Source: Blasia pusilla
Lineage: Eukaryota
Length of the DNA: 64,000 nucleotides
Direction: 5' to 3'
Assembly (NCBI GenBank): GCA_050084515.1
Contig: CM114271.1
Coordinates: 6,324,001-6,388,000 of the forward strand
Made by a program: the position numbers and the translations under genes. This document shows, piece after piece, positions 1,144 through 59,204 of this stretch. The notes below the pieces were generated by a model, which did no database searches, had not been told where the DNA came from, and saw only the letters and a list, made by a program, of their open reading frames with translations. Each line of letters begins with the position of its first letter. The stretch's first letter is position 1.

Positions 1144-2480
1144 AAGTGTGACTATTGTCATAGGTATGGTCATACATGCGCCACGTATTTCATTTTATAT
1201 CCTGAGTTAACGTCCGCACCGAGGGCCAAAGAGGGCACCAGAGCGAGTAGCCGGTCCAGGTGGTCCCGTTGGGGGACGAGGAGCTCGAGTTACTTGATAG
1301 GGTAGTGGAGCTGCCCGTGGAGGAGGTAGAGTCCCACCATCTAGACACGTTGAGGGAGATGTCAGACGTGAGGCTAGGATGGTTGCTCACATACAAGAGC
1401 TACAGGAGCAGATTGCCGTTGTGGCATTGAGGTTACCCAATGCTGGATCTGTGGCATCGACATCATATGGAGCAACCTGAGATACGGAGGATCGTGGTTG
1501 GATGTGCAAGGTTGCCCAGATGAAGGCATCCGCAGTTGTGATGCGTGGAGCAACCGTAGAGTTGGATCCAAAGCAAGGAGAAGCCATGAAACAGACCAGG
1601 CTTCCTCAGTCTTTCACGTTGTCCGAGGCGATGAGGACCCCATTGATGGGTCTTGATCAGAGTTCTTGGAGAGTTGGTGATGTTGTTGGTGTGTGGGCAC
1701 GGATCGCAATGGGAGAAGCGAGTGCAAAGACTCCTATTCCTCATGCTCATTAGGAGCATGTGCTGAGCACGTTGTTCGGGGCGGCCACCGTTGTGTACAG
1801 CGCTCCTTTACTTTCAGCTTTCGATGTTATGACGTAAGGAGATACATCCGCCGAGGTTTTTTGGCTGGCCGCTATGCTATGTGATCGTGGAGTTGGAGTT
1901 CCTGCATCACGTTCAGAGGTGATTGCAGAGGAGGTGATGGAGATGCCCTCGGAGGTGATGCTCGGGCCATCCACGTCAGATTCATGGCAGGCTGCGGCTG
2001 CTAGGATGGTGGAGATACCCGCTAGATCCGCGATACAGCGTGCCATGGCTTCTCCTCATGTTGTGTTGGTGGATAACAGGGGAGAGATCTTCCAGTTGGT
2101 GAGTCTTGGAGGTAGAGCTTTTAGTCCGCAACGCGTCTTGTTGGATTGAGGAGCGCAACCCCTGATGTTCGGGAAAGCGTCATTAAGAGGATTGGGCTTA
2201 ACGAGAGCCGATGTGGAGCGTTGTCCATTCCGGATATATACATCCTTGGATGGAATGAGTATCACACAATATATCATCCGTCAGGAGCTCGCAGTGAGCA
2301 TTCGCCCCGGACATCCTACAAATGAGTCCATAATGCGAGCCTAGGCGATAGTGATTGAAGTAGAGTCCTACGACGTCTTGGTTGGTGGAGCAATGTTATA
2401 TTTGATGGGTTTTTCCCTGGATTACTGGGAGGAGTCAACGTCCTACAGACACCAGGATGGCAGTCAGGTGATGGGTGCCT
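1144..2480 (+). pseudogene. gag C-terminal region and aspartic protease of the gypsy element
   Basis: CCHC-like knuckle CDYCHRYGHT at ~1147, and RVLLD*GAQPLMFGK at ~2131-2175 (intact LDSGAQP in the sister copy at ~11240-11285). Confidence 0.8.
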
Positions 2481-2859
2481 TAACTCATTACCCGTTCGAT
2501 TCACAAATGCACCGATCGAGCGACGGCCAGGAGAGATGGTGACCTTAGCAGCATTTAGCAGTGCCATCACTTGGCCTAGTGATTTGATTGAAGGACATGT
2601 CCATGCAGAGGATACTTCCATTCTTGACATTTCTATGGATATGAGTGTCATGGTAGCGGCATCAGTCTGTGGAAGAGAGGTGCCGCTTTGGGGCTCGACT
2701 GAGGAGAATTGACGCTTAGCCACTCAGCATGTGCTAACCGCGTGGAGCGAGACGTTTGCACCAGAGTATGACGGGTCAGAGGACCCCAAGTAGGCAGGAG
2801 TGTTGCTATGACCCCTTTGGACATCACCCCGATTGTGTGGTGCATCCTAGAGAATTTCA

Positions 2860-3860
2860 GCTGACACTTGGTTCTCCAGCATACATTTTGGAGAATGTGC
2901 CAATTTTGGGCGATTTGAGATCTCGTGTGGTGATGAGTTTACATCAGGTGCGCACATGGATTGGTTTGGCAGTGTTGTTAGATGCAACAAGTGTGGGTTC
3001 ACGAGCACATTGACCGCGTCTTTGGTGGACCAACTTGGTACCACACGAGGTGTTACGGAGGGCATATGCGAGAGTGAAGCGCCCCTCCGATTTTTTGGGG
3101 GATTCTATATTGGATCCGGATGGTCGATCATAGGCATTGAGGCCAGATGATCGACCGCCGTTGATTGTGGTCAATAGGATCAGTGCCTCATTCAGTTTTC
3201 ACAGTAATTGTTGTTGGGATTGGAAGAAGAGAGAAAGCAAGGAGTCTGTGAAGCCTGTAGACTGGCGTACAGGTTTGATAGCTGGGTTCTAAAGCCTTGG
3301 GTCTTGAGTTTTGATGATCAGAATGAGTGGTCTTCTTGTTAAGGAGAACTGAGCCCTGAATTTTGTATCTCAGAGTTCAGATTTATAATTGAAAGTGATT
3401 TGAGTGGTGAGTGGCGCGTGGAAAAGTGCTTTATTGCCAAAAGTTTCAATTTTGTCAATAGTGGTCACCTGATTTTGGCGTTTATTCTCACTCCACTTAT
3501 TTGTGATCCTCGGCTTTTTGAGCTTTGTGTGCTTATGTCATTGGGGATTGGTGATCATCGAATTTGTGGACGGTCGTGGCGACCTCCGCGTGGGACAAGG
3601 AATCGACCACGTGCAGCTTTTTCCACATTGGTAAGTTTTCTCGCTTCCTATGCATTCAAGGAGGCCAGACCTAGCTTGGTTTGGGATGACCAAGTACAGA
3701 GGTTGGTAGAGCCCAACACCAATGAGCGAGAACGAGTGATGGGATTCCTCACAAGAGTGACGGCAGTACCGTCATTATCAAAGGCATCACGACGTCATGT
3801 ATTGGGTCAGGAGATGGACCTCAACTGCTTGACATGGACTTTTAGCTTAGGAGTAGATTA
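2860..3860 (+). pseudogene. DNMT3/DRM-like cytosine-5 DNA methyltransferase domain (C-terminal part) inside the gypsy pol
   Basis: Motif VI YILENVP (2882-2902), motif VIII LDATSVGSRAH*PRLWWTNL (~2978-3037), and motifs IX-X EPNTNERERVMGF...SLSKASRRHVLGQEMD (~3709-3820). Motifs I and IV are not seen. About 0.4 kb of unrelated sequence interrupts the domain at ~3180-3600. Confidence 0.82.
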
Positions 3861-4329
3861 GCAGCGTTGTTTGAAGATGCAACAGATCACAATTGTTGCG
3901 TTGGTGAGTCCCATGCCTACCAAGACGGTTGAGGCAGCGGTTGGGGGCGAGACCCAAAGAGATCGAAACACCAGGGGTGATTGGGAGAGACACCCTTGGA
4001 CTTCTTGGGATGTTTTGCAAGTACGCCAAGAGATGATAGCCACAGCATCGAGTGTGGTTTCAAGTACTACACGTGGAGATGAGAGTTCTATTGTCCGAGA
4101 CGGGGTTGCACCATAGCAACCACCGACACCCGCGTCATAGAGTCCTACCGTAGTCACGATGGAGACTTGGGAGCCATATATAGACTCTAAGTTAACAAGA
4201 GGAGAGCGGCGCCGGATACACCAGTTCCTTAGGAGTTATAGGAGTTGTTTTGCATTTAGTTTGCATGATTTGGGTACGCTAAAGGGTCCACGCATCCGCA
4301 TTGAGTTGTTGAGTGACACGCGGATCTTT

Positions 4330-5600
4330 TGACGACCCTACAAGTACATTGACATGGAGAGGGCTCTGATTCAGAGTAGGAGCCAAGACTTGGTTGGAGC
4401 AGGACTAGTGGAGATGTCGCATGGAGAGTATGGATCTGTCACTGTCATGCCCACCAAGAAGGATGTGCATGGTAACTGGACAGATAGGCGGATGTGTGGA
4501 GATTATCGACCTATCAATCGGCAAACGAAGTCTGATAGATATGCCATGTGCACTCCTGAGGAGATCTTTGATGCGATTGGGCATGCAAAGGTCTTCAGTT
4601 CATTGAATTTGCAAGCCAAATACCATCAGCTGCCTATCAAATTCAAAGACATGTAGAAGACAGCATTTTGGGGCATTGATCATCACGGAAAGGATTGTTT
4701 GTACCAATGGCAGTTCTTACCATTCGGGCTAAATAATGCCCAGCCTGAGTTTCAGAGGGTCATGGATAGGATCTTGGAAGGTATGGATTTTTCAAGGTGT
4801 TATATTGATGACATCGTAGTCTTTAGCGCCACGATTGAGGAGCATGAGCGACATCTAGAGGAGGTATTTTGACGATTGCAGTTCCATGGGCTGAAGCTAC
4901 ATCCAAGCAAGTGCAAATTCTTCTATGGCCAGATTTTGTACTTGGATCATACGATATACCCAAGGGGCCTTCGTATGCAACAGACGAAGGTAGAGGCTAT
5001 TTCACGCATTCCACGCCCTACAGATGTGAGTCGAGTTCGTGCATTCATGGCATTGGCGAACTTCTATCGACAATACGTCAAGGGTTTCAGTTCGATTGCG
5101 AAGCCGCTAACCTTGATGACCAAGGTGAATCAGAAGTGGCATTGGAGGGATGAGCAAGAGAGAGCATTTCAAATGCTCAAGGACATATTGACGTCCGCGC
5201 CCATATTTAGGAGATCGATTAGGGGGCGTCCTTTCCAGTTGCATGCCGATTGGAGCATGTTGGGGCTTGGACCCGTGCTCACCTAGCATGACGATGATGA
5301 TAGAGAGTTCCTGGTGGATTACGCCAGTCGCTCGAACAACGATATAGAGGCGAAGTATAGCTCGTATGAGGGTGAGTGCTTGGCTGCAGTGTGGGTTGTC
5401 GCACATTTTAGATGTTATCTATTTGGCAATCCTTTTACCATCATTATTGATCATCAGCCACTTAAGTGGTTGATGGAGTCCGACAAGCTTATAGGGAAGC
5501 TTGCGAGGTGGGCTCTTTTGTTGCAGGAGTATGACTTCCAAGTAGTGCATAGACCTAGGACGCTCAACCAAGATGCAGATGGTTTGAGACATAACCCATG
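4330..5600 (+). pseudogene. Reverse transcriptase and RNase H of the gypsy element
   Basis: RMCGDYRPIN, LPFGL, YIDD (4801-4812), KLHPSKCKF, FQLHADWS, YASRS...YSSYEGECLA, DHQPLKWL, NQDADGL. Interrupted by stops. Confidence 0.93.
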
Positions 5601-5979
5601 CCCGAGTCAACGTGATACGACTAGAGCTCATTCGCATGGTCAGAGTGATGAGGAGTTGGTGTCAAGATGGCATGCGTCAGCCTATTTGGGCTTGTTGGCT
5701 ATGGAGAGCCAAATTGTTGAGACTTCGATGGCGAGGTCTGATGGAGAGTCCTTAGATCCAGAGGCCGTTGAGGAGACATCAGGTGGCCGAGATATTCACG
5801 ACGATGGAGTGGTCTTGGAGTACCTGCGTATTGGCAGCGTCGCAAGTACAGTGGGTGTTAGAGAGCGGGATCGGATCCTACAGCGAGCCAGACGGTTCCT
5901 GTGGGAGGGCACACATGTGTTGCAAGTGCGGAAGGATGGTAGAATGTGTGTAGTGCCTCATCCTTCACAGACAGTATGT

Positions 5980-7220
5980 TTGGTGCGTCATGCCCATGAG
6001 GAGTAGGGTCATTTTGGAGTGAAGCGGACGTACAACTTGCTCTAGATTCAGTATTGGTGGCGAGGCATGCAGACTGACGTTCAGCAGTTTGTTGCCAAAT
6101 GCATGGTGTTTGATCAAGTCCGAGCATCGTTCAATGCTCCGACTCCACACCTGCATCCATTTTCGATCATGGATGAAGGTTATAGATGGAGTTTGGATTT
6201 TGCAGGACGTTTGCCTTTGACGGAGCGCCATTGTTGTTATATGTTGGTGATGGTCGAGCACTTCTCAGAGTGGATAGAGTTCATTGCATTTCCTAACAAA
6301 GCGAGTGAGGGAGTAGCGTATGCCTTCCTAGATTGAGTGTTGAGTCATTATGGCGCACCAGCAAAGGTGTTGACAGACCAGGGTACAGAGTTTCGCGGGG
6401 AGTTTCAGGCCTTGTGTGATCAGGCATTGATCGACCACCGCACAACTTCGCGAGATCATCCTGAGGTGGATGGACTAGCGGAGCGGCTTGTGCGGACGGT
6501 GAAGAGAGGACTACGTAAGTATGGCTTTTAGAGAGGTCACCTAGGAGATTGGGACCTTCAATTGCCGTGGTTGGCGATGGGATACAGATTCAGCAAGCAT
6601 GCATCCTTAGCGTCTTTCTCACCGTACTTGTTGCTTTATGTTGCTTTGCGGCCATTCGTCGAGATGTTGGTGAGGTGTTGAACCTTGAGGACCCTAATGT
6701 ATGGATGCAAGCATGTTCTCAGAGAGCTGAGTTATTTCGGAGAGTGATGCCCATGGTGTTTGAGAACTTGGCGATTGCGCAACATCGGGATACGTTGAGG
6801 TATACGACTATTCGGGGAGGTGGTTATCGACCTACTATTTGGAGGTTTCATCAAGAATACTATGTCTACTTGCAGCAAACGGCATCCACGACCTTGGATG
6901 TGACTGCATAGCGCACCATCTTGAAAGTGCATGAGGTTTTGCCATCCGGTGTTCCCTTATTGGAGGGACGCGATGGTATGGTTTGGAAGGACCATATGCA
7001 TAATTGTGCACCATGTCATCTTTCGAACATTGACGGTACAGTTGATCCGAGCTTAGCAATAGTTCCTGCAGGCTTGTGGTGTATGTTGTGTGCTTCCGCT
7101 CGTGGTGCAGCCACTATGCTAGTCTGTGATGGGTGTTTGAGAGGATGGCATATAGCATGTTTGACGCCACCTCTCACTAGGGTTCCTCAAGGACGATGGA
7201 TGTGTCCCAGATGTACATAG
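5980..7220 (+). pseudogene. Integrase with C-terminal PHD finger
   Basis: HHCC-like HAHEE*GHFG, catalytic core WSLDF / LTDQG / GLAER, and terminal C4HC3 CMLC...VCDGCLRGWHIACLTPPLTRVPQGRWMCPRC (7080-7217) followed by TAG. Confidence 0.9.
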
Positions 7221-7400
7221 AGTAGGTAGTTCTACATTCTGACTTGTGTCTGTGACATGAATGACAAGAAGGCAACTAACAATTGGGCCACATGAGCACC
7301 CAACATTCTTTCTCTAAGCATCCGAGATATGTATGTCATGGTAGGTAGGGATAGATGGCTATCTAGAGTTAGAGGGACCTAATCACCAATTGTGGGGGCG

Positions 7401-7837
7401 ATTGGAGATATTTTGGTACTTCTTGTCTCGTTTTTTGAATGCCATGAGTTAGCATGGGATCGTGCGTGTTTGTATGTCTGTTCAATCATATTGATGCATG
7501 TTGTGTAGTGATGTGTGTGCGCACGACAACTGTCACTTCTTTTAAGATAGATCGGTGAGATCTAGTAGAGCATCTTTGTAAGTAGTAGAGGACAGGGTTA
7601 GTAGGTTGAAGATGACTTTTCGGCTCATTTGGAGCCATATTGAAGAACTTACTATTTTATGTAAGTATTTTGAGTATATGATTGACTTTCTATTTTTGGT
7701 AAATGACCCTTGACTTCCTACATCAGGTCAAGAGCCAAGGAGGTGACTTGGGAGCATAGGTTATCATGGAGAGAGCTTGGGAGAGAGGAGGGGTATACCT
7801 CAAGGAGAGAGAGCTTGAGAGTTTATTCTCTCTTTGT
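7401..7837 (+). repeat. LTR 3' end (7401-7528) joined through AC to an LTR 5' part (7531-7837)
   Basis: Junction reads ...GCGCACGACA-AC-TGTCACTTC. It follows the PPT-like TGTGGGGGCG at 7391-7400. 7531-7837 is the reverse complement of ~8000-8354. Confidence 0.8.
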
Positions 7838-8354
7838 AAAATAAGATCCAATCTCTCTCACAACACCATAGTTCTCACATGTGTTCATTCTCACATGTCT
7901 CTCTGAATGTCAAACTAAACCCACTCTCCTAATGAGAGGCTTGGATTACACAAACAAGGCAAGCAAGACTATAGCTCTGCCGCCTCATGCCAAGAGGTTC
8001 AACAAAGAGAGAATGAGCTCTCAAACTCTCTCTCCTTGAAGTATTCCCCTCCCCTCTCCCAAGCTCTCTCTATGGTAACCTATGCTCCCAAGTCACCTCC
8101 TTGGCTCTTGACTTGATGTAGGAGGTCAAGGGCCACTTACCAAAAATATAAAGTCGATCATATACTCAAAATGGTACTTACCTAAAATAGTAAGTTTCTA
8201 AATATGACTCCAAATAAACCGAAACGAAGGGAAAACCTACTCTCTCAGGTTTCTCGGGGCCTCAATAGGTCATCCTTGACCAACTGAGCATGTCCTATAC
8301 TACTCACGAAGACGTTCTACTAGATTGCACCGATCTGTCCTAAAAGACGTGACA
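7837..8354 (-). repeat. LTR (5' and middle part), inverted
   Basis: Ends GTGACA at 8354 (TGTCAC on the minus strand). Direct repeat of 879-1143 and inverted repeat of 7531-7837. Confidence 0.85.
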
Positions 8355-8359
8355 AATAG

Positions 8360-9190
8360 TAGAAGTGACTTTCAAGCATGATATGATCAAATATTGATAA
8401 ATCATCATATGAATTTTGGGGATTATTTAGAGGCCTACTTTTTGGTAGAGGAAGTGGTCTATGTGATGAAGGGAGTATTGCGTAAGTATGAACTCAAATA
8501 TAAACATTTAGAAGACTAAGATCTCAAATTTCAATGATTCGTTATGAATTATATTTTAAGTCCATAGTCATAACTCTCACCATATTTCTTGCTTTATGGG
8601 AGAGAGAAAAAATAATTGTCACATATTTTTCACGATTCAATCATATGAAAGTATTTTACCTCAATGACCTTCAAATATGAAAGAGAGATTATTCTTAATT
8701 GGTAGAGATATTTCAACAATTAAGAACTTGTATACCACTCAACATCAAAAAACTTTGAGATATACAACCATTCAAAGAGTTGATTATCAATCAAGTATTA
8801 AGAGGATTTATCCTTAAAATTATGTCTATCACCATCAAATAGTTTTTAAAAATTTGGAGTCGATGGTAATATACATCATTTTACATATGCAAGAGCTTGT
8901 GCCCTCATAAGTTTTTGTGTGGGAGGATCGGTATAGTATTATTTGGAAGGATCATGTGCATAATTATGTGTCATTTTGTATTCTAAACCTTAGACATAAT
9001 ATTGATCTAAGCTTGATAGTGATTGTGGCAACCTTAAGATGAAATTTTATAGGTTTACTAGAGGACCAACCATGGTACTAGTTGGTAATGAATATTGAAA
9101 AGAATGGCATACATTTGCTTGAGGAATTTTAATTCTATCTCTAGACTCCCTTCCTAGGCATATTTGACTTATTCCAACTATACATATGAT
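8360..9190 (+). pseudogene. Older, heavily decayed integrase-PHD remnant of the same gypsy lineage
   Basis: Collinear similarity to 6400-7200, e.g. GGAAGGATCATGTGCATAATT (8945) vs GGAAGGACCATATGCATAATT (6985), and GAATGGCATACATTTGCTTGA vs GGATGGCATATAGCATGTTTGA. Confidence 0.7.
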
Positions 9191-9494
9191 TGAATTAGTA
9201 GATTTTAAGATAAACCTTGATTTAATGGATTTAACGAAGATAACTAATAATGGGGTGAGATACCGCCAAACCTTTTTATCTTAGCTTCAAAAATATCCAT
9301 AATCTTTATTTTTGTGGCTATCTTGAGGAAGGGGTGTGCACATATACATCACTATCACTATCTACACATAAATAAATATAAAACATCATACTCACCCATA
9401 GCATCTTCATACAAAGATGATCGTGTACCAAAATATCTCCAAGAATATAAGTCACAATAAAGCTCTAACATACACTCGATGTCTCTCTCATGTC

Positions 9495-11039: not shown

Positions 11040-14000
11040 AGAAGCTAAGATCCACGTATAAGTGAACAAGAAATTTCACCTCGGCACAAGATCACTAGCG
11101 CTCACTAGTTATCATCATTTTTGTTTACCACCAACTCCTGTCGAGTCATGTACTGCGTGGATGATACCCAATAGAGGTCTGTATCTGAAAGGGACAACGC
11201 TCGATGTTGCCTTTTCGTGACCCCAATGCCAAACATGTCGTCTTCCCTAACATCAAGGGTTGCGCTCCTGAATCAAGTAGGACGCGTTACGGTTGGTACA
11301 CCGTACCTATGGGACTAACCAAGCAATGAACTCTTGTTCGGTAATCCAACAACACCACACGTGGTGTGATCATGGCTCGCTCTATCGTTGGCCTAGCTGG
11401 CATATCTACCAACTTCGCCACCGCAGCATGCCATGACTCCGTGGGAGACGTCCTAGCACTTTCTTTGAGGTCAAGTCCACCACCTCCTCAACTACCTCTA
11501 AACGAGAGGCATTCACCTCTCCACGCTCACACAACGTGGCGGCCAGTCGAAACACCTCCGCTGGTCCAACTCCCAATGTCGCCAACTCCATGGCGGAAAA
11601 CCAAAAAGCATGGCTGCATCGACATTGGCTCCTCCCGAGCAAGCATAGGAGTCTTCTCCCCAACTCCTCATGACGTTAATGCACTTGCCTCATCCGTTGG
11701 TGTCACCGGTCGTCGAGGCACCATCGACAGTGTATGAAGTACCTCTGACAATGTGAACGACTCGGGATCCCTAACCTGACCCCCATCGGTCCCCTCCTGT
11801 GGGTCAATCTCAACCCCACCTCTCGATGGCTCGGTTACTCTCCCAGCATCCCGAGTCACCACCGCAATAGCCTCAATCTCAGCTGCACTACACATAAATC
11901 CCATCCCGAAAAAATCCTCACAAGCATCGTGGTAAGATATGGAGGTTGGCGACACACTAGCTACTCTAAGCTCCGAGCTTGCCTATAGTTGCATCATCAT
12001 CATGGCAGCAATCCTCTACTCCAATTGATGATGCGCAAAAGGAGCGTTGCATCGGATGCACGTCCTCCATCTCTTTTGACTGGTGATGGCACTCTACCAC
12101 CACGATCATCCACCACTCGATCTCCACCAACTCTCTCGCCCCCAAGTCCTTTGCCTACCTCTGGACGTATCTCTTGGCAAAGATCATAACACCTATCCCT
12201 AGTGTGACCATATCGGTGACAATGATCATACTGCAATTATGGTAGGGCCATCCTCTATGGCTCTTGAGCAATCGAAGGCGCCCGTGGCCCTCTTCCATGT
12301 TGTGGGCAGTCCCTCTGCCTATGTGACCCACCACACGTTCAACAAGCCAATCCTAGTCCCTACCGGAAAACATATGTTGGTACAGACCATTGCCTCATCT
12401 GCTCACAATACCCACCCTCCTCTCTGGGCCCATCGGCCCATTCCTGTGGTACTGGTGCATGTTGGGGCACCTATGGGTCTACTCCTACTCGTCAACGCAT
12501 CGAATCTTGCAAAAATCCCACTAACGTTGTCACCACCTGCTCCTTACTTATGTTGAGCTCTACCAGCTCAGATACTCCACCTTCAATGTGGGCTTCGTCG
12601 TGTGAAGCAACATCGCAACCCGAACTCTCCTCTGTAGCTCCTCAGTCATCCCATATACTGTATAGACTGCGCCTCAGTCATCCCATATGTGGCAACAATC
12701 AAACGTCGCATGTGCGTGAATGCCTCTCTCAGACTCTCACCCGATCTCCGCTGAAAATCTTGTAGACTCTTCAGCTTGTCGGTCCGGACGCCCTGGTAGC
12801 TCCTCCCCAACTATCGGAAGAACTCCACTGTAGGACTGAAACTCTGTGATCCTCTACCACACTTCCTCCATTCTTGTGGGCACACTGCCCTATGTACTGG
12901 CTTTCCCGATCATCCCTCACTAGCCAACCTTTGTTGTCGCGCGGTCTGACGCCCCCTTCTCTTACCTTCATTAAGGACGCAGATTGACACGCGTCCCTAT
13001 GGAGGGACTCTCCTAACTTGGAGCCATAATGGCTCCTCCTTCCATCCCGGAGCGCCCATACTTGCCCTTGTCTCCCCACACTTGGTCCGAGGTCACCACG
13101 TACACGGCTTCCTAAGGAGACCGTTTTTCTCTCCCATCTTCGTCTCTTCAACCCCTATGACCTAACTCCGTTACCTTGCGACCGAGCCATCTTTACTTGA
13201 GAGCCCCCCGGTAGCTGCAAGCCCTAAAGGTGCTCTTCTCCTATCTCTTTCTCGACACTTGCCACTACATCGATGCTACTCTCTACGCGCTACACTCTAC
13301 TACTTTCCTTCATCATCTTGTACCAACAATATCTAAGAAAAACGGACAACGCTCCCGCGCACAACCTTCTAAACAGAAAACAACACACAAAATGCCACAC
13401 ACGCGTCTCCAAGGGCTTTCCTCCGAGGCAAATCGCTTGCCTACCTGCAACCAAAAAATTCCCTACCCACTCACATCTTTCTCATGTAAAATCAAGAGTA
13501 GTAAAAATGGCTCATCAGGTCTAAAACTCCACTCATGAATCTACATCGGCATATCGAACCACATCCACCCTCTACTATGAGGGAATTCGGACGCTAGCAC
13601 CCTAACTCCTACACACCCACATACGTCTATGCAAGAGAGGCGCTCCTAAGGCTCAACATGAAAAAGATGGCTTGGGAAAGTCATCTTCCTCACTCTTATA
13701 CCCTTGAGAAGATGTCGTGCAATCCACATCGTCATACAACATACATCGCTGACATACCATACGCACATACATACATAACATAGACGAGAGTATCCACAAA
13801 CGCAAGTGTACCACAACTTAAGTGTACCACAAGTGAAATCCGTGAAAGACCTACTGTCATAAAACACGTTTACAATCACATACAATCGAGCCAAACCCAC
13901 TCCACGATGGGAGAATCCAGGTCGAAGCTTGCGGGAAACACCATAGCCAAGAGCTCTACTCACTACCAAGGGTAACTCCCAACGCAACAGGCTCAACTCA

Positions 14001-43872: not shown

Positions 43873-44348
43873 TATCGTGCGAATCCACATCGTCATACAA
43901 CATACATCGCTGACATACCATACTCACATACATACATAACATAGACGAGAATATCCACAAACACAAGTGTACCACAACTCAAATCCGTGAAAGACCTAGT
44001 GTCATCAAACACGTATAGAATCACATACAATCGAGCCAAACCCACTCCACGATGGGAGAATCTAGGTCGAAGCTTGCGGGAAACACCATAGCCAAGAGCT
44101 CTACATACTACCAAGGCTAACTCCCAATGCAACAGGCTCAACTCAAAGAACTGACTGTTCTTTGAGTGCACTCCACCTTATATCCTCCAACCTAAGAGCG
44201 GGCCCTACTGGGAAAGTCACCCCCAACTGAGTAACCCCCAACCCTATGTATGAAACCGCATCTCTACCAAGCGACTATGGTCCTACATAAGGAATGGCCT
44301 CTACTAGCACATTATACTCTACGACATAATCCGTATGGTCATCACAAA
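43873..44348 (-). repeat. Solo/partial LTR of the 13713-14467 family nested in the Harbinger element
   Basis: Near-identical to 13713-14203. Confidence 0.9.
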
Positions 44349-51280: not shown

Positions 51281-53515
51281 TTCAAAGAATACATCGTATT
51301 GTGCTACTCCCTAATAGATTAGTTCTCACATGTATTGTTATAAAACTAAAAACCCTACACCAAAGCTGATTATAGTTTGTTGCGGCCCCTAATACTACTG
51401 CGTAAATTGCGCATTTAATCCTCGTTGCGACAAGTCGACTCAACGAGTAGAGGCTGGGTAGGGTATCCTCGCGGTTCAATTACCTACGTGGTAGACGGAG
51501 TACCGTATGATGGGATGTGCGTGAGTGTTCTGAATTAGGGATTTCCGAATGTTTTTTCGATCATCTCGTTGTCACCAAAAAAATGTTTATGGCCGGAGGT
51601 CGGACCTTCGGGCAATGTGCTACAATGTTTGAGACCGCATAATTCATTGACCCACGGGCGCCCAATTGAACTCTACACTTTCTTGATTTTGTGCCCTCCC
51701 GTAGCTAAATTGCTCATCTACACCACTTCTTTCTTCAGATGGAACTCGCGTTACGTTTGGCGGCGATAGTTTCATAACATCGTTCCTTCTTTTAGACTGG
51801 AACATTGGAAATTGGCTGCCACGTCAAGTCGTCCATGGAGGCAAGTAATCAATTCCCTTCTTGCCTATTGAAGCCGACATTTAGTTTTCTTGCTTATGAA
51901 ATCACATTACAGTACGTTCAAATTGTAGTTTTTCTCTTGCTGCAATTGGAAAACCATTAACGGTCGTTGCGGACGATACTGAAGGATTGATTGGTCAAGC
52001 ATATGCTTCTTAGAATTTAGTTGTTCTATTTTCTTAGCAACGCATTTTTCATTGTGGACTAGGCTCGTCAGAAATTGCCCTAGTGTTGTCAATCGATAGT
52101 GTCAATTTCCCTACATCTCAGCATACTGTTATTATTTTGAAGGATTGAACCTACAATCGTAGGAGTGAAAAAAGCCAATGGCAAGTGCAATTTGTTGTAT
52201 GTTCATTTATTTTATTTATGTTTGCACCCAAAAATGGTCTTTGATGTTGAGTAATCGTCAAGACATGCAGGGATTTTGCATATTGGGAATCATATCATTC
52301 CCGTCTTGGGAGTGTACACCCGCCACTACTTCCTCCCCATTGCGTCAGCCTATGCCATTATTGCATTTGACAGGTTGTCGAGGCTTTGTAATTGCTAGTA
52401 GTCTACCATACACTGCAATATTTTTGCTTTTCCTTCTCTATTACGGAGGGTTGGGTAAAGTGTTACAAGCGGTTGTGCCATTACAACACCTCTATTGAGA
52501 AAGAGACAGTTTCGTGATGCCATCTCTTTTGTTGCGCCAACTTTGCAATAGACCTTGTGCACACGCACTTGTGCATTGAGCACACCTTGGATTGCACGTA
52601 GAAAGTGTTCGGTTGCAATTGTAGCTTCTTTTCGATTATTTTCAATCTCCGGCTATCTTTGCTCGTAGTATTTCGCATTGGCTATATTCTCGACGGTTAT
52701 TCGGCTGCGAGCACGACTTAGGTAATATTTCCCACATTCCATTGTTTATGGCACCTCCTTCATCGTCCCAGCCGCCGATGGATAGGCAACAAAACTGAAA
52801 ATTCAGTTACAATTTAGCATGTTATTTAGAAAATTATCAGGAGTAAAGTACCTTGGTGAGGGAGTAAAGACATTAGTGAGCCCTTTTCTCTTGATTCTCG
52901 AAGTCCATATTTAGAAGCCCAATGATAAGCCACTTAACACTAATTTCATTATCTCGAGGGACCTATTTGTAGTTCTTCGTACTGATAATGAGTCCCTTGA
53001 AGTTCAATGTGGATAGCGCGACACAAAGATACGGGGTCAATCTGGTAGAAGCACGAAGTAGTAAGATATATGTTGGATTCTCAACATCCACTTCCCTGAG
53101 CACCATTAATCGGATTGGCCCTCTTTGTATGAGGAGAAGCCTAGATTGATGGCTCCGACTTACACGTCGAAGGAGTCATAGTAATATGACGTAGGTGGTC
53201 TACGGAGTAGCGTTACTAGGATTATCTAACCCTATATTGCATCAGGGTACCCCACACCCTGATGCAATATAGGGTTAGATAACCCTAGCAAAAATGTTCT
53301 ATTAATGGAAACGAAGAAAAATAGATAAAAACCCTAGTTTCCTGAGTAGTGAAATAGTCGGGAGCCGCAGCGGTAGCGTATTCTGGTATGTCAAATTATC
53401 TCCATGTTCAGGTTCCATCAAAGCTATTCCGTGAGCGCTTGGACGGACTAGGCCACTTTGTATCTCTAAGTTTTGTAAAAATTTAAGTGATCTTGTCACT
53501 TTCTGTTTTCTCACA

Positions 53516-53527
53516 TGGTATCAGAGC
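53516..53527 (+). promoter_or_regulatory. Primer-binding site complementary to tRNA-iMet
   Basis: TGGTATCAGAGC immediately after the 5' LTR. Confidence 0.92.
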
Positions 53528-53587
53528 AGTAGGTTTTCCAGTATTTTGTATCTGGCGATCTAGTGTGTTTGCACAAAATCTTGAGAG

Positions 53588-56500
53588 ATGGCTACTTCTT
53601 TGTCAGTTCGTGCTCGCCCTCCTCCATTGGGTGAAGGCAAGTTAGATGGGTCTAACTATATATTTTGGAAGTTCAAAATGAGAACTGTCCTCGAATCATT
53701 TGAGATCTGGGAGACGGCCACAGGGGTTGATTCGAATCCACAAGCTACTTTGAGTTCTGCATGTTCATCTTCATCTAAAGATATCGATTCTGTTGTATTG
53801 ATGGCATGGAAACGCAGAAACGATGATGCTCTATATACGATTGTCACGAATATAACTGATTATGTCATGACTCTCATTCAACATATAACCATTGTCGTTG
53901 AAGCGTGGAACATTATGAATAATCACTATGAAACGAGGAACGAGACTCAGATTTAAAATCTGAAGAATCAGCTTACATCCGAAAAAATTTCAGAAGGAGA
54001 AAGCACGGAGCAATTTTTGACAAGGATCAAGAATCTTCAAGACCAGATGGCGTATGTAGAAATTTCAAAGTCTAGAGAAGATTTGGCACGTCCGTGCATA
54101 AGGATTTTGCCTCCAAGTTATGACAGTTTGGTCATTGCATTGAATACTCAAGTAAGACCCACGCCGCTTACTTTTGAACGATTTAGTGCAATGTTGGTAG
54201 AAGAGGAAATGTGCTTCAAAGCAAGAGAGGGAAGTGATGCATCATTTACTACCAACGTACAAAGAGGTATAAATCAGGATTACATTTCAAATGTCAAGAA
54301 GAAATTTCCAAGGAAAGCCTTCAAATGCTTTTATTGTGGTAAGGTAGGTCATCTTATCAAAGATTGTAGAAAGATGAGTGAGGATGAGAAGAACGGTTGT
54401 TTAAGACCTAAGAAGGAGTCTGGAAATTTTGTAGGACTAGAAGAACATGAAGTAGATGCTTGAATAGCAATCAAAGATTTTTGCACGCAGGAAAAACATT
54501 CCACTAAGTTAAAGAGTAAAGATGCATGGGTGCTCGATAGTGGAGCATCTAGGCATATGACCAATCATAAGGATTGGTATAGCTCCTTACAGCCTCTACA
54601 AGAGCCCATCGTTGTTATTGTTGGAAATAATGCAAAGTGCCTTGTAGAAGGGAAAGGCAAAATTTCTTTAGTCTCACAAAAAGGAGATGAAAAGAAGTTA
54701 ACTGATATATTGTACATACCAAAGTTGAAGCAAAATTTGATTTCAGCTGTAGTATTATGTGATCGTGACCTAGAAGTTTGTTTCAAGAAAACTGGAGTAG
54801 TCATTGAGGATGCCAATATGGTGGGTGAAGGTATACGACGTGGAAATATCTATGAGTTGTATGGTTTCACGACAAGTGTAGGTACAGATCGTAGTAGCAG
54901 TAAGTTATGGCATGAAAGATTTGGTCACCTAAGCTTTCCCTTACTAAGTCAGATGCAAAAATTTGGCATGGTTGTTGATTTACCAACAATTTATGGAATG
55001 TCGGATATATGTGAAGCTTGTATGATGGGCAAGCAACACCGACAACCATTTCCACAAGAGTCAAGCAATAGAGCAAAGGCTCCTCTAGAGTTGATTCATG
55101 CTGACCTCTGAGGTAAAATAAGAATAGTGGCATTAGGTGGTTCTTCCTACTTCTTTTTAGTTATCGACGATTATAGTAGGAAGATGTGTATTTCCTTCGT
55201 GATAAGGCAAGTGCTTTTGGAAAATTTAAAGTATGGCACAAGCTGGTTGAGAATGAGACAGGAAAGAAGGTACATAAGCTTCACACCGATCGAGGAGGAG
55301 AATTCTTATCAACATAATTTAACAAATATTTGGGGGAGCATGGAATCAAGCGATAGTTAACCACGGCACATACACCACAACAAAATGGAGTTGTTGAGCG
55401 TCAAAACCATATAGTGGTGGAGATGGCAAGATGTATGATGAAAGCAAAAGATTTGACAGAAGGATTTTGGGCTGAAGCTGTTAATACTGCCGTTTACATC
55501 CTAAATAGAAGTGCTACCAAGTCAGTACATGCATGACTCCTCATCAATTATACTCAGGTAAGGTACCATCAGTCCAACATTTCAGGAATTTTGGTAGTGA
55601 GTGCTTTGTACATATTCTTGAAGCATCCAGAACCAAGCTGGAGTCCAAGAGCATCAAGTGCATCTTTATGGGATACAGTGTTGAGTCTAAAGCTTATCGC
55701 CTATGGTGTCTCAAGGCAAAAAGATGCTTATGAGTCGTGATGTGGTGTTCCAAGAACAACCTTGTCAAGTGGCAGATATCAGTGGTCCGTCCACACTATC
55801 GTCAAATAAAGAGATAACCCACTAGAGCACACCACCAATGCTTACACCAGATCATCAAAAAGAAGAATTTGGTGATGATTACAAAGAGCAGCCTGCTCTT
55901 CCACTACAGTCGTCATACCCTAACGGGATAAAGCAACTCTTGGATGGTAAGGATCCACCAGCAAGTGATGAAGTTGTTACACATCGAAGGAGATCCAAGA
56001 GACTAGAGGGGCATAATAGAGCTTCCGCACATCTCGTCAACATGGCCTTGATGATAGAGGTCTTGAAGGTGGAAGAGCCATCATGCTTGGATAAGGCCCT
56101 TGCTCATCCTCAATGGAGAGAGGCCATGCAGATGGAGATGGACGCTATTCAAAGAAATGAAACTTGGACTTTGGTTGAGAAGCCAAAGGACAGGAAGATA
56201 ATACGCACCAAGTGGGTATGCAAGACCAAGTACAAGTCGGACGGTACATTGGATAAATTCAAAGAGAGGTTTGTTGCACAAGGATGCTCACAAATTGAAG
56301 ATTTTGACTACTATGAGGCTTTTGCTCCTACTGCAAGGATGAAAACCATTCGAATTGTTCTAGCGGTCGTAGGAATAAGACATTGGCATGTATACCAATA
56401 TGATGTGAAGTTTGCCTTCCTGAACGGGAGTCTCAAGGAGGAGGTGTATGTATCTCAACCACCAGGTTTTGAGACATCCGGATCAGAAGAGAAAGTGTGT

Positions 56501-58667
56501 TTACTTCATCGAGCATTGTATGGGTTGAGGCAAGCCCAAAGGGTATGGTATCAACGAATAGATACATTCTTCTGAGAAAAGGGTCTCATCAAGAGTCTGT
56601 CCGAAGCAAATTTGTATGTGTTTTGTGAAGATGGGATGTATATCTTGATAGTCTTGTATGTGGATGATCTTATCATCACAGGAGACCATAGTAAAAAAAT
56701 AGAGGAAATGAAGGAAGTGTTGAAATCTGAGTTTGAAATGACAGGTTTAGGTCTTTTGCACTACTTTATAGGGCTGGAGATTTGGCAACAGTCAGATTCT
56801 ATTTTTCTCTCAACAAAAGTATGCTAGAGAAATCTTGAAGGCATTCGGGAGGACCGAGTGTAAGGTAGTGGTCTCGCCAATGGAGGTAGAGTTGATACTC
56901 TCGATGGAGGATGTTTCACTATTGGTAGATGAAAAGTTGTATAGATAGCTTGTAGGCAGTTTGATATTTTTTTGTAACACTAGACCGGATATTAGCTTCA
57001 CTATGGGAGTGTTCAGTAGGTTCTCAACTAAGCCTCGTGAGAACCATTCGAAGGAAGGGATGCGTGTGTGGAAGAACATCAAAGGCACTATTGAGTACGG
57101 CATCACTTATGGAGCGAGGACGGAAATGACAGGTTTTTGTGACTCGGATTAGGCAAGAGATTCAGATTCTCGAAGATCAGTTTCGGGTTATTGCTTCTTG
57201 GTAGGATCAAATATGGTGTCATGGGTGAGCAAGAAGCAACCTCCAGTAGCTCTTTCTTCTACCGAGGCATAGTACAAGGCGGCTTGTTATGCTTGTTGTG
57301 AAGCAGTATGGTTGAGATGGATATTGGAGGACATAGGAGAAGCACCAAAAAGTGCTACTATAATGAGGTGTGACAATCAGAGTTGCATTGCCATAGCATA
57401 TAATCCAGAGTTTCATGCTTGTACAAAGCACATAGAGATCCAGTATCATTTTGTTCATGAATTGATCGAGAGAGAGGTTTTGAAGTTAGTCTGGGTGTAT
57501 TACAGGTGGGTAGTGACCTGCTAGGAGGGAGGTGACCTGTGTGTACATGTCACCCATGGAGGTGCCCAAGGGGGTATACCTCGGATGAGGCTCATTTGGA
57601 GCTCATCTCCTTAGGATTGCGGACCCTTGTTGGGATCCGGGATACAACGCAACTTGCATGTATTGAGCTTGGATTCTCTATTGAACAGTGGGCTAGGAGT
57701 GATGAATAAAGAGATCACATATTTTGGGAATCCTTGTGTATACTTTCTCTTGCTGTTACACCAGTGTGTATCAAAATCATGAGAATGGCTGTTTGGATGA
57801 AGCACAGTTGATTGTAGATTTCATCAGAGCTTACAGTGCGGATTCAACTTTATATTGCGGTGGTCCAGTCGTTCATGTGTAGAGTATGTTGGCAGCGATG
57901 TGTATTCGCATGACACTATAATATTAAGCAAAAGAAAAATACTCAATAAAGAAAAAAATGACTAAGGTCCATTTAGGGTCCAAATTGGTTTGAGTGACAT
58001 ACACACATGAGAGGGAGTGGCATCTTAAACTCATAAATCCCAAATTGGCAAAATGGAGCCTCAACATGTGTGTATGTTGAGGCTGCATTTTGCCAATTTT
58101 GGGATTTATGAGTTTAAGATGCCACTCCCTCTCAGATCTATGAATCCCTCTATTTAAGAGTCCGCTCCACCCCACTTTTTTATGGTGAGGGGAAAGACAT
58201 CCATTAAGTTCTGAGGCCGCTTACTTAACTATTCTCTTAAATATTCCACGTGTCAACACCCGAAAAGAATTGAAAGGAAAATTATCATTTGAGAATATTT
58301 CTAACACCATCCTCTTTGAATTATGTACACTGGTTAGGACCCGTGAGGGAACAGTATAATGCACGGTCTACTCCACTCCACGATCTCGAAAGCCTAAACG
58401 GCCCGTTACGCTGCACGAATGCCCATGTCATACGTCATACATACTGGGTTCAAAGGACACGTAGTGATCTCTCCGGTGTCACCATGAAAATCAATCCTAT
58501 GGTAACTAATCTATATTATTATAGGAGAGTGGATTATTGATTTGCAAACTCCTCTTCGTTTCACACGTCCCCTAGACGATAACCGTGCAGACATCTTCAC
58601 GAAAGCTTTGAACGGAGATCAGCTTCACCGATATCTGAAGGATCTTGGCATAAGTCCAAGACAGTAA
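53588..58667 (+). pseudogene. copia gag-pol polyprotein, disrupted
   Basis: KLDGSNYIFWK, CFYCGKVGHLIKDC, LDSGASRHMT, LWHERFGH..CEAC, IDDYSR, KERFVAQG, YVDDL, FCDSD, KHIEIQYHF, ADIFTKAL (after a ~1.07-kb insertion). Confidence 0.93.
57492..58558. mobile_element. Unclassified insertion splitting copia RNase H
   Basis: RNase H stops after EVLKLV (~57491) and resumes at PLDDNRADIFTKAL (~58568). Contains a long palindrome and, at 58510-58555, the Helitron-family 5' motif. Confidence 0.7.
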
Positions 58668-59204
58668 TCCACATGAGAGTGGATATTGAGGGGGTGTGTT
58701 GGATTCTCAACATCTACTTTTATGAGCGTCATTAATCTGATCGGCCCCCTTTGTATGAGGAGAAGCCTAGATTGATGGTTCCGACTTAGACGTCAAAGGA
58801 GTCATAGTAATATGACGTAGGTGGTCTACGCAGTGGCGTTAGTAGGATTATGTAACCTAGCAAAATTTTCTATTAATAGAAATGAATTAAAATAGGTAAA
58901 AACCCTAGTTTGATGAAATAGTCGGGAGCCGCAGCAGTAGCGTATTCTGGTATGTCGAGTTATCTCCATGTTTAAGTTCCATCAAAGCTCTTCTATGAGC
59001 GTACGGACGGACTAGACCACTTTGTATCTCTAAGTTTTGTAAATATTTCAGTGATTTCTTCACTTTATGTTTTCTCACAATATATTGCGAGGTTTACGGT
59101 TTGTAGGTGAGGACCGAGTCATAATCAGAGATGTGAGCGATGAGAAAATAAGTCGACTCGATAATAGTGAATTATACAAAGGCCGGGCATGCACACAATG
59201 TTTT

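Follow-up and report, generated by a model that had tools for sequence, protein, structure and literature searches.

A PHD finger at the integrase C-terminus of a decayed Gypsy-Dnmt3-like retrotransposon copy in Blasia pusilla

A dead Ty3/gypsy-type copy and its ends

The window, that is, the whole stretch of DNA analysed here, comprises 64,000 nucleotides of Blasia pusilla (GCA_050084515.1, contig CM114271.1, positions 6,324,001 to 6,388,000 of the forward strand). It holds a decayed retrotransposon copy that includes a PHD finger, together with two further relics of the family. Their features are as follows; DNMT stands for the DNMT3-like DNA methyltransferase, and L029 is a nearly intact relative from a metagenome.

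1784..2697, plus strand: decayed end of the Gag region and aspartic protease (tblastn with L029 ORF1, E 2e-23)
2876..3187, plus strand: DNMT3-like remnant with motifs VI (ENV) and VIII; the family DNMT matches DNMT3A first
3511..3885, plus strand: C-terminal part of the DNMT3-like remnant, downstream of a ~330-nt insertion
4114..4122, plus strand: conserved in-frame TAG CAA CCA at the junction of DNMT and reverse transcriptase, a likely readthrough signal (motif as in PMC3542737)
4324..4950, plus strand: reverse transcriptase (RT) with stops (PF00078)
5230..5598, plus strand: RNase H (RH; PF17917/PF17919)
5941..6639, plus strand: integrase (INT) H2C2 and DDE core, frame +1, with stops (PF17921, PF00665)
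6648..7079, plus strand: integrase C-terminal helices and SH3/Tudor-like barrel, frame +3, ending in H-x3-C-x2-C-H
7080..7214, plus strand: PHD finger, C4HC3 intact (PF00628)
7394..7528, plus strand: polypurine-tract-like run (7394-7401) and B1 repeat ending CACGACA, as in relatives
7531..7616, plus strand: start of the A2 repeat (TGTCA...), the remaining ends being scrambled by other repeats
8337..9353, plus strand: second relic, heavily decayed (integrase end, C-terminal domain, PHD)
11149..12843, minus strand: third relic of the family (part of Gag and protease)

The element is assigned to the Ty3/gypsy type because RT, RNase H and the integrase H2C2 and core domains lie upstream of the PHD finger; its order protease-RT-RH-INT, with a DDE integrase, is that of the type. 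This copy is dead, and its value is only that of a witness of its family. Frame +1 carries the RT-RH-INT core (4162-6639) and has ten stops, the one at 4114 included. A frameshift at about 6640-6647, between the integrase core and the C-terminal domain, leads into frame +3, where the C-terminal domain and the PHD finger (6648-7217) are interrupted by a single stop at 6909. Near 2147, a stop has replaced the active-site codon of the protease. A deletion of ~340 nt has removed motifs I and IV from the methyltransferase, which is also interrupted by an insertion and so cannot methylate.

Relatives carry a repeat A (TG...CA, ~340 nt) at the 5' end and a polypurine tract followed by B-A-B at the 3' end. 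The split direct repeats A1...B1-A2-B2, a DIRS-like arrangement, are found in L013, L025 and L077, and the B repeat occurs twice downstream of the PHD finger in 30 of the 59 loci with at least 1 kb of flank. The full A...B-A-B elements span 1679-10805 of L013, 1841-11050 of L025 and 1690-11009 of L077, and the 4-bp target-site duplications (TSDs) of the three are AAGG/AAGG, CATA/CATA and AACA/AATA, two exact and one with a mismatch. The window retains only the polypurine-tract-like run, B1 and the start of A2; several other copies stop directly after B1.

The second relic aligns to 6367-7390 with a score of 432; the highest score over 100 shuffles was 95. The sequence-only reading, an earlier annotation made without database searches, had placed a decayed PHD finger at about 9050-9190. 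The homology does extend through the finger (115 identities in 187 positions; score 75, with a maximum of 35 over 200 shuffles), but Pfam cannot read it as a PHD, with zero matches in three frames. A separate repeat family covers both element ends (125-1142 and 7618-8354, with a 264-nt direct copy and several inverted copies), and more minus-strand B-repeat ends of the PHD element family lie at 769, 13713 and 63904. The segment 13721-14114 recurs at 43882-44259, and another pair of LTRs, about 5.6 kb apart, lies at 53071-59079 with ORF pieces at 53957-56575.

The methyltransferase and the stop before the reverse transcriptase

In the nearly intact L029, ORF1 encodes Gag, two zinc knuckles, protease and DNMT, and ORF2 encodes RT-RH-INT-PHD. 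Its DNMT scores 51 bits against PF00145 and has motifs I, IV, VI and VIII in order, intronless and unrearranged; the best PDB matches of this and the family DNMT are DNMT3A/B/C. Of 80 metagenome loci, 26 retain sufficient sequence ahead of RT to be informative, some of them near-duplicates; 24 of the 26 have DNMT upstream of RT, and none has it between RT and INT. This is the survey of co-occurrence among relatives that the sequence-only reading had proposed, and it bears out the pairing of a PHD finger with a methyltransferase at the level of the family, although the window itself holds only a methyltransferase remnant. The order in intact relatives is Gag, zinc knuckles, protease and DNMT3-like domain, one stop, and RT-RNase H-integrase-PHD in the same frame, all between the A...B-A-B repeats.

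The wider clade is arranged differently. With home-built profiles (PF00145 was present in 11 of 22 proteins scanned), DNMT stands immediately before INT in 73 of 150 representatives, against two in which it precedes RT, and DNMT and PHD share one protein in 57 of the 150. Set beside the metagenome loci, in which DNMT lies upstream of RT, these sequences indicate that the domain has moved within the element over the clade. Used as a query for longer proteins of up to 2000 aa, the DNMT piece of the window gave two matches, both methyltransferase-only, a 2,400-aa fusion lying outside that range.

A stop followed by CAR marks 24 of 30 junctions between DNMT and RT (29 loci and the window), 13 times as TAG and 11 times as TAA; the remaining six are deleted, replaced or decayed. 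Ten of the 24 are exact CAR-YYA; the other 14 depart from the consensus by a single base (CAA CCC) and have an ATG directly behind. Exact instances include the window (TAG CAA CCA at 4114) and two relatives, L029 (5083-5091) and L081 (3489-3497), where TAG is followed by CAG TTA or CAA TCA and is the sole stop separating two long ORFs of the same frame. The stop is not universal, since in two of the representatives, P0099 and P0161, a single open frame covers both DNMT and RT. Many predicted RT-to-PHD proteins (four clusters) begin 45-72 residues before the RT motif, as expected with a stop just upstream. UAG-CAR-YYA is the type I readthrough signal described for tobamovirus (PMC3542737), and the conserved in-frame stop is probably read through. 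Folds of the 90 nt 3' of the stop, compared by eye and with no shuffles, have no shared hairpin. Among the sequencing runs listed as containing L029, none was of RNA.

Alternatively, the TAG could be a splice acceptor, or ORF2 could arise by re-initiation. We regard this as rather unlikely, and it would alter the expression step only. It would account for the pyrimidine-rich stretch that precedes the TAG in several subfamilies, and for the ATG two codons after the stop in the largest one. However, ORF1 and ORF2 share one frame, and L029, L081 and the window have no nearby ATG; moreover, although the second codon may encode Pro, Ser or Leu, its first two bases are invariably pyrimidines, which CAR-YYA demands.

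The PHD finger, its distribution and its binding site

In the six-frame translation the finger at 7080-7214 (plus strand) is an intact C4HC3 PHD, followed by one codon further and a stop at 7218-7220. It matches PF00628 in the Pfam scan with 43.6 bits (cut-off 24 bits; E 3e-11), so that zinc ligands and curated score alike confirm the intact finger originally noticed, and the full C4HC3 pattern occurs only here in all six frames of the window. Against each of the 32 loci, out of 80, that have a stop-free finger, dN is 0.26-0.44 and dS ranges from 1.19 to saturated; the loci are not independent, many being of one subfamily, and this excess of dS in all 32 indicates purifying selection on the finger. 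Directly before the linker to the finger lies a conserved H-x3-C-x2-C-H (6990-7022), whose last Cys is kept in 40 of 40 and His in 39 of 40 aligned relatives; it could be an additional metal site.

A search with the C-terminal domain and PHD of the window returned 62 proteins, 50 of which contain PF00665 and PF00628 in one chain. Identity to the query is 74% and 71% in Marchantia, 71% in Calypogeia, 60% in Sphagnum and 47% in Klebsormidium. As such a query is biased toward PHDs, a second search took as its sole query the integrase core from an intact relative. Among its best 150 proteins, 112 run at least 200 residues past the core, and 108 of these have a PHD after the integrase. The conjecture that the finger is a lineage feature thus stands, and these protein sequences make the PHD a clade trait of the integrases. 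In intact relatives it terminates a single RT-RH-INT frame (1047 aa in L029). It had also been claimed that the finger ends the pol frame: this is so in these relatives but not in the window copy, where a frameshift and stops come before it.

No chromodomain (PF00385) appeared in Pfam scans of the window and relatives, which covered part of the 150 representatives and, in one case, 25 of 28 families. The description of the PHD as standing in place of a chromodomain is therefore apt as to position only, and does not imply that the element descends from chromoviruses. A quick integrase tree, with three long junk rows included, 31 of 59 branches open and no labelled outgroup, puts the window together with moss-metagenome loci in a group of 13 rows (support 96), and an integrase-PHD protein of Klebsormidium nitens in a separate supported group. 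As a lead only, an Atlas search returned PHD clusters labelled green-algal and streptophyte; scans of viral contigs gave zero relatives. Loci L081-L086, members of this eukaryotic clade, lie on short contigs within prokaryotic MAGs, likely as contamination.

In 61 of the 150 representatives (P0042, P0043, P0047, P0070-P0203) a further C-terminal domain follows the PHD, with DPWSGTG-like and SPW/SPP-like motifs. It resembles an amino-methyltransferase (PF02086 matches only weakly, E 0.0035 and 0.033) and is often preceded by a Tudor-like piece (PF21743, weak), so elements combining DNMT, PHD and a DAM-like domain are possible in this set.

The closest solved PHDs are those of CHD4, PHF12, Lid/KDM5-PHD1, KAT6A, BHC80, BAZ2A/B, ATXR5 and UHRF1. 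The C-terminus of L029, modelled from 40 sequences (pLDDT 79.8, pTM 0.44), consists of helices, an SH3-like barrel and the PHD, which aligns over 52 residues both to ATXR5-PHD with H3 (Z 8.8, rmsd 1.4) and to ORC1b-PHD with unmodified H3 (Z 8.1, rmsd 1.7). As modelled, the fold is of the class that binds the histone H3 tail; a common fold alone shows no function. A second reader in the C-terminus was considered and rejected: Foldseek placed Tudor-PHD proteins on top, and a wide search gave Tudor, KOW and SH3 barrels at Z 6-7.5, but integrase C-termini are generally SH3-like anyway. No integrase C-terminus was among the 50 structure matches listed.

At the site two residues before the PHD histidine, which we take to be that of the marker tryptophan of methyl-K4 readers, the window has Gly, as have all 40 aligned relatives; Trp stands there in one of 104 representatives. 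Other residues are well kept in the alignment: the Asp after Cys3 (38 of 40), a Met (37), a Pro (38) and the final Trp (39), which presumably line the H3 A1-R2 site as in related fingers. A conserved Trp marks PHDs that read methylated K4 (PMC5415848), and this cage tryptophan of K4me3 readers is absent from the window finger. The same source holds an acidic wall to be important for H3 binding by BAZ2A/B. The corresponding site, aligned to an Asp of KDM5B-PHD1, is Ala in the window; in its branch (10 of 14 near relatives, those matched by pattern) it is Ala eight times, Thr once and Gly once, never Asp or Glu, whereas 34 of 104 representatives have an acid there. With the acidic wall missing, binding of the H3 N-terminus by the PHD of this branch is, on its residues, likely but not certain.

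It is accordingly conceivable, if unlikely, that the PHD of the window's branch is no longer a histone reader and is retained as a structural or protein- or DNA-binding module of the integrase C-terminus. Besides the acidic wall, the branch has lost the acid three residues before Cys1 (Gly in 9 of 10 near relatives; Asp or Glu in 60 of 104 representatives), and its finger has a basic net charge (+1.5, against -3.9). The retention of the four presumed A1-R2 residues speaks against such a change.

Interpretation and comparison with known systems

We read the finger as the C-terminal integrase PHD of a dead copy of the Gypsy-Dnmt3 kind, which in active copies likely anchors the integration complex to H3 at its unmethylated start and so biases insertion; we give this reading a probability of about 0.6, with both histone binding and insertion targeting being inferred. 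A leaky UAG-CAR-YYA stop would yield abundant Gag-protease-DNMT and, as the minor readthrough product, RT-IN-PHD, from which the protease would free IN-PHD. The PHD would bind the H3 N-terminus but not K4me3, disfavouring active promoters, and IN-PHD would tether the integration complex to nucleosomes free of K4me3. The DNMT, packaged in excess, would work independently of the PHD, its likely target being the cDNA or a fresh insertion of the element itself.

The ADD domain is DNMT3's own reader arm, and the PHD might likewise serve the element's own DNMT3, as ADD does in DNMT3A, and aim methylation rather than integration. The deeper relatives suit this idea, with DNMT directly before INT or in one protein with the PHD in the proportions given above. 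In the window's branch, however, DNMT ends ORF1 and the PHD ends ORF2, with about 1,100 codons and the conserved stop between the two ends, and this separation of reader and writer weakens the DNMT3 analogy drawn by the sequence-only reading, which fits only the deeper relatives better. Some relatives, such as P0054, have RT-RH-INT-PHD with no DNMT between, so that the PHD travels with INT. We consider the reader-arm role improbable. Capture of a host PHD exon beside the integrase by chance, which the frame break at 6640-6647 of the window copy might suggest, is refuted by the intact relatives: 50 of 62 in the first search and 108 of 112 in the second have the same PHD behind INT in a single frame.

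The standard example of retrotransposon integration guided by histones is the chromodomain. A PHD retained by integrases across about 100 protein clusters (defined at 50% identity) would add a second route, which could be tested in Marchantia or mosses, for which chromatin maps are available. A stop that makes DNMT as abundant as Gag would further predict a DNMT that is packaged and acts on cDNA, which is directly testable; the function of retrotransposon DNMTs has been called an open question (PMC5890265). More tentatively, one may picture a large, old green-lineage clade with a fixed PHD-integrase and a relocated DNMT3-like enzyme. Its bryophyte members would have a TMV-type leaky stop, DNMT packaged at Gag level and a rare PHD-integrase aiming at H3K4-unmethylated chromatin, and its deeper members, with a second, amino-methyltransferase-like domain, would be a third kind of EpiLTR. 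This broader picture is possible, though we would not favour it as a whole.

Much of this has published precedents: Gypsy-Dnmt3 with split direct repeats, PHDs in retroelements, and EpiLTRs joining reader and methyltransferase. The nearest is KnitGypsy-Dnmt3 of Klebsormidium nitens (de Mendoza et al. 2018, PMC5890265), described with gypsy domains, a Dnmt3 in Pol and DIRS-type repeats, and our elements share the Gypsy domain set, the intronless DNMT3-related domain and the DIRS-like repeats. The K. nitens integrase-PHD protein KFL_015960010, which need not belong to KnitGypsy-Dnmt3 itself, has 47% identity to the C-terminal domain and PHD of the window. The main text of that paper has no mention of a PHD; it reports that the K. 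nitens DNMT was inactive in yeast, a test its authors deem inconclusive. Unlike the DNMT in the Pol ORF described there, ours lies in the RT frame behind the protease but is split from RT by a conserved stop, save for the single open frame of P0099 and P0161, and among named sequences the close relatives come from liverworts and a moss. Among the titles and abstract openings listed in literature searches, none describes a clade with PHD-integrase and DNMT3 in land plants, or readthrough at the DNMT-RT junction.

Like chromoviruses (Neumann et al. 2019, PMC6317226), these elements have an integrase whose SH3-like barrel is followed by a C-terminal domain of the chromatin-reader type, but it is a PHD rather than a chromodomain, with no PF00385 match in any scan. 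PHD has been called a widespread accessory domain of retroelements, with targeting proposed (PMC6673714, PMC8557442, 10.1101/2021.11.30.470311), and occurs in CR1 LINEs, in REM1 and Chlamys PLEs of Chlamydomonas, and in cnidarian fusions; these descriptions name no integrase clade with DNMT3 plus PHD, and the REM1 integrase is described as truncated and reversed (PMC2774666). EpiLTRs (bioRxiv 10.64898/2026.05.21.726589) likewise combine a reader and one or more DNA methyltransferases in a single LTR element, but with a chromodomain, DAM and a DNMT4-sister enzyme, in Cymbomonas and Euglena, instead of PHD and a DNMT3-like domain. Compared by description, the Phygy clade (PMC6317226, PMC6911290) is similarly bryophyte, non-chromoviral and compact with 4-bp TSDs; its NCGN target preference is seen in none of our three TSDs, a small sample from other hosts. 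In stop context and in the in-frame polymerase downstream, finally, the junction resembles tobamovirus type I readthrough (PMC3542737), but it is known here from sequence, belongs to a retrotransposon and follows protease and DNMT. This DNMT-RT junction stop with CAR-YY is an addition to the published Gypsy-Dnmt3 picture.
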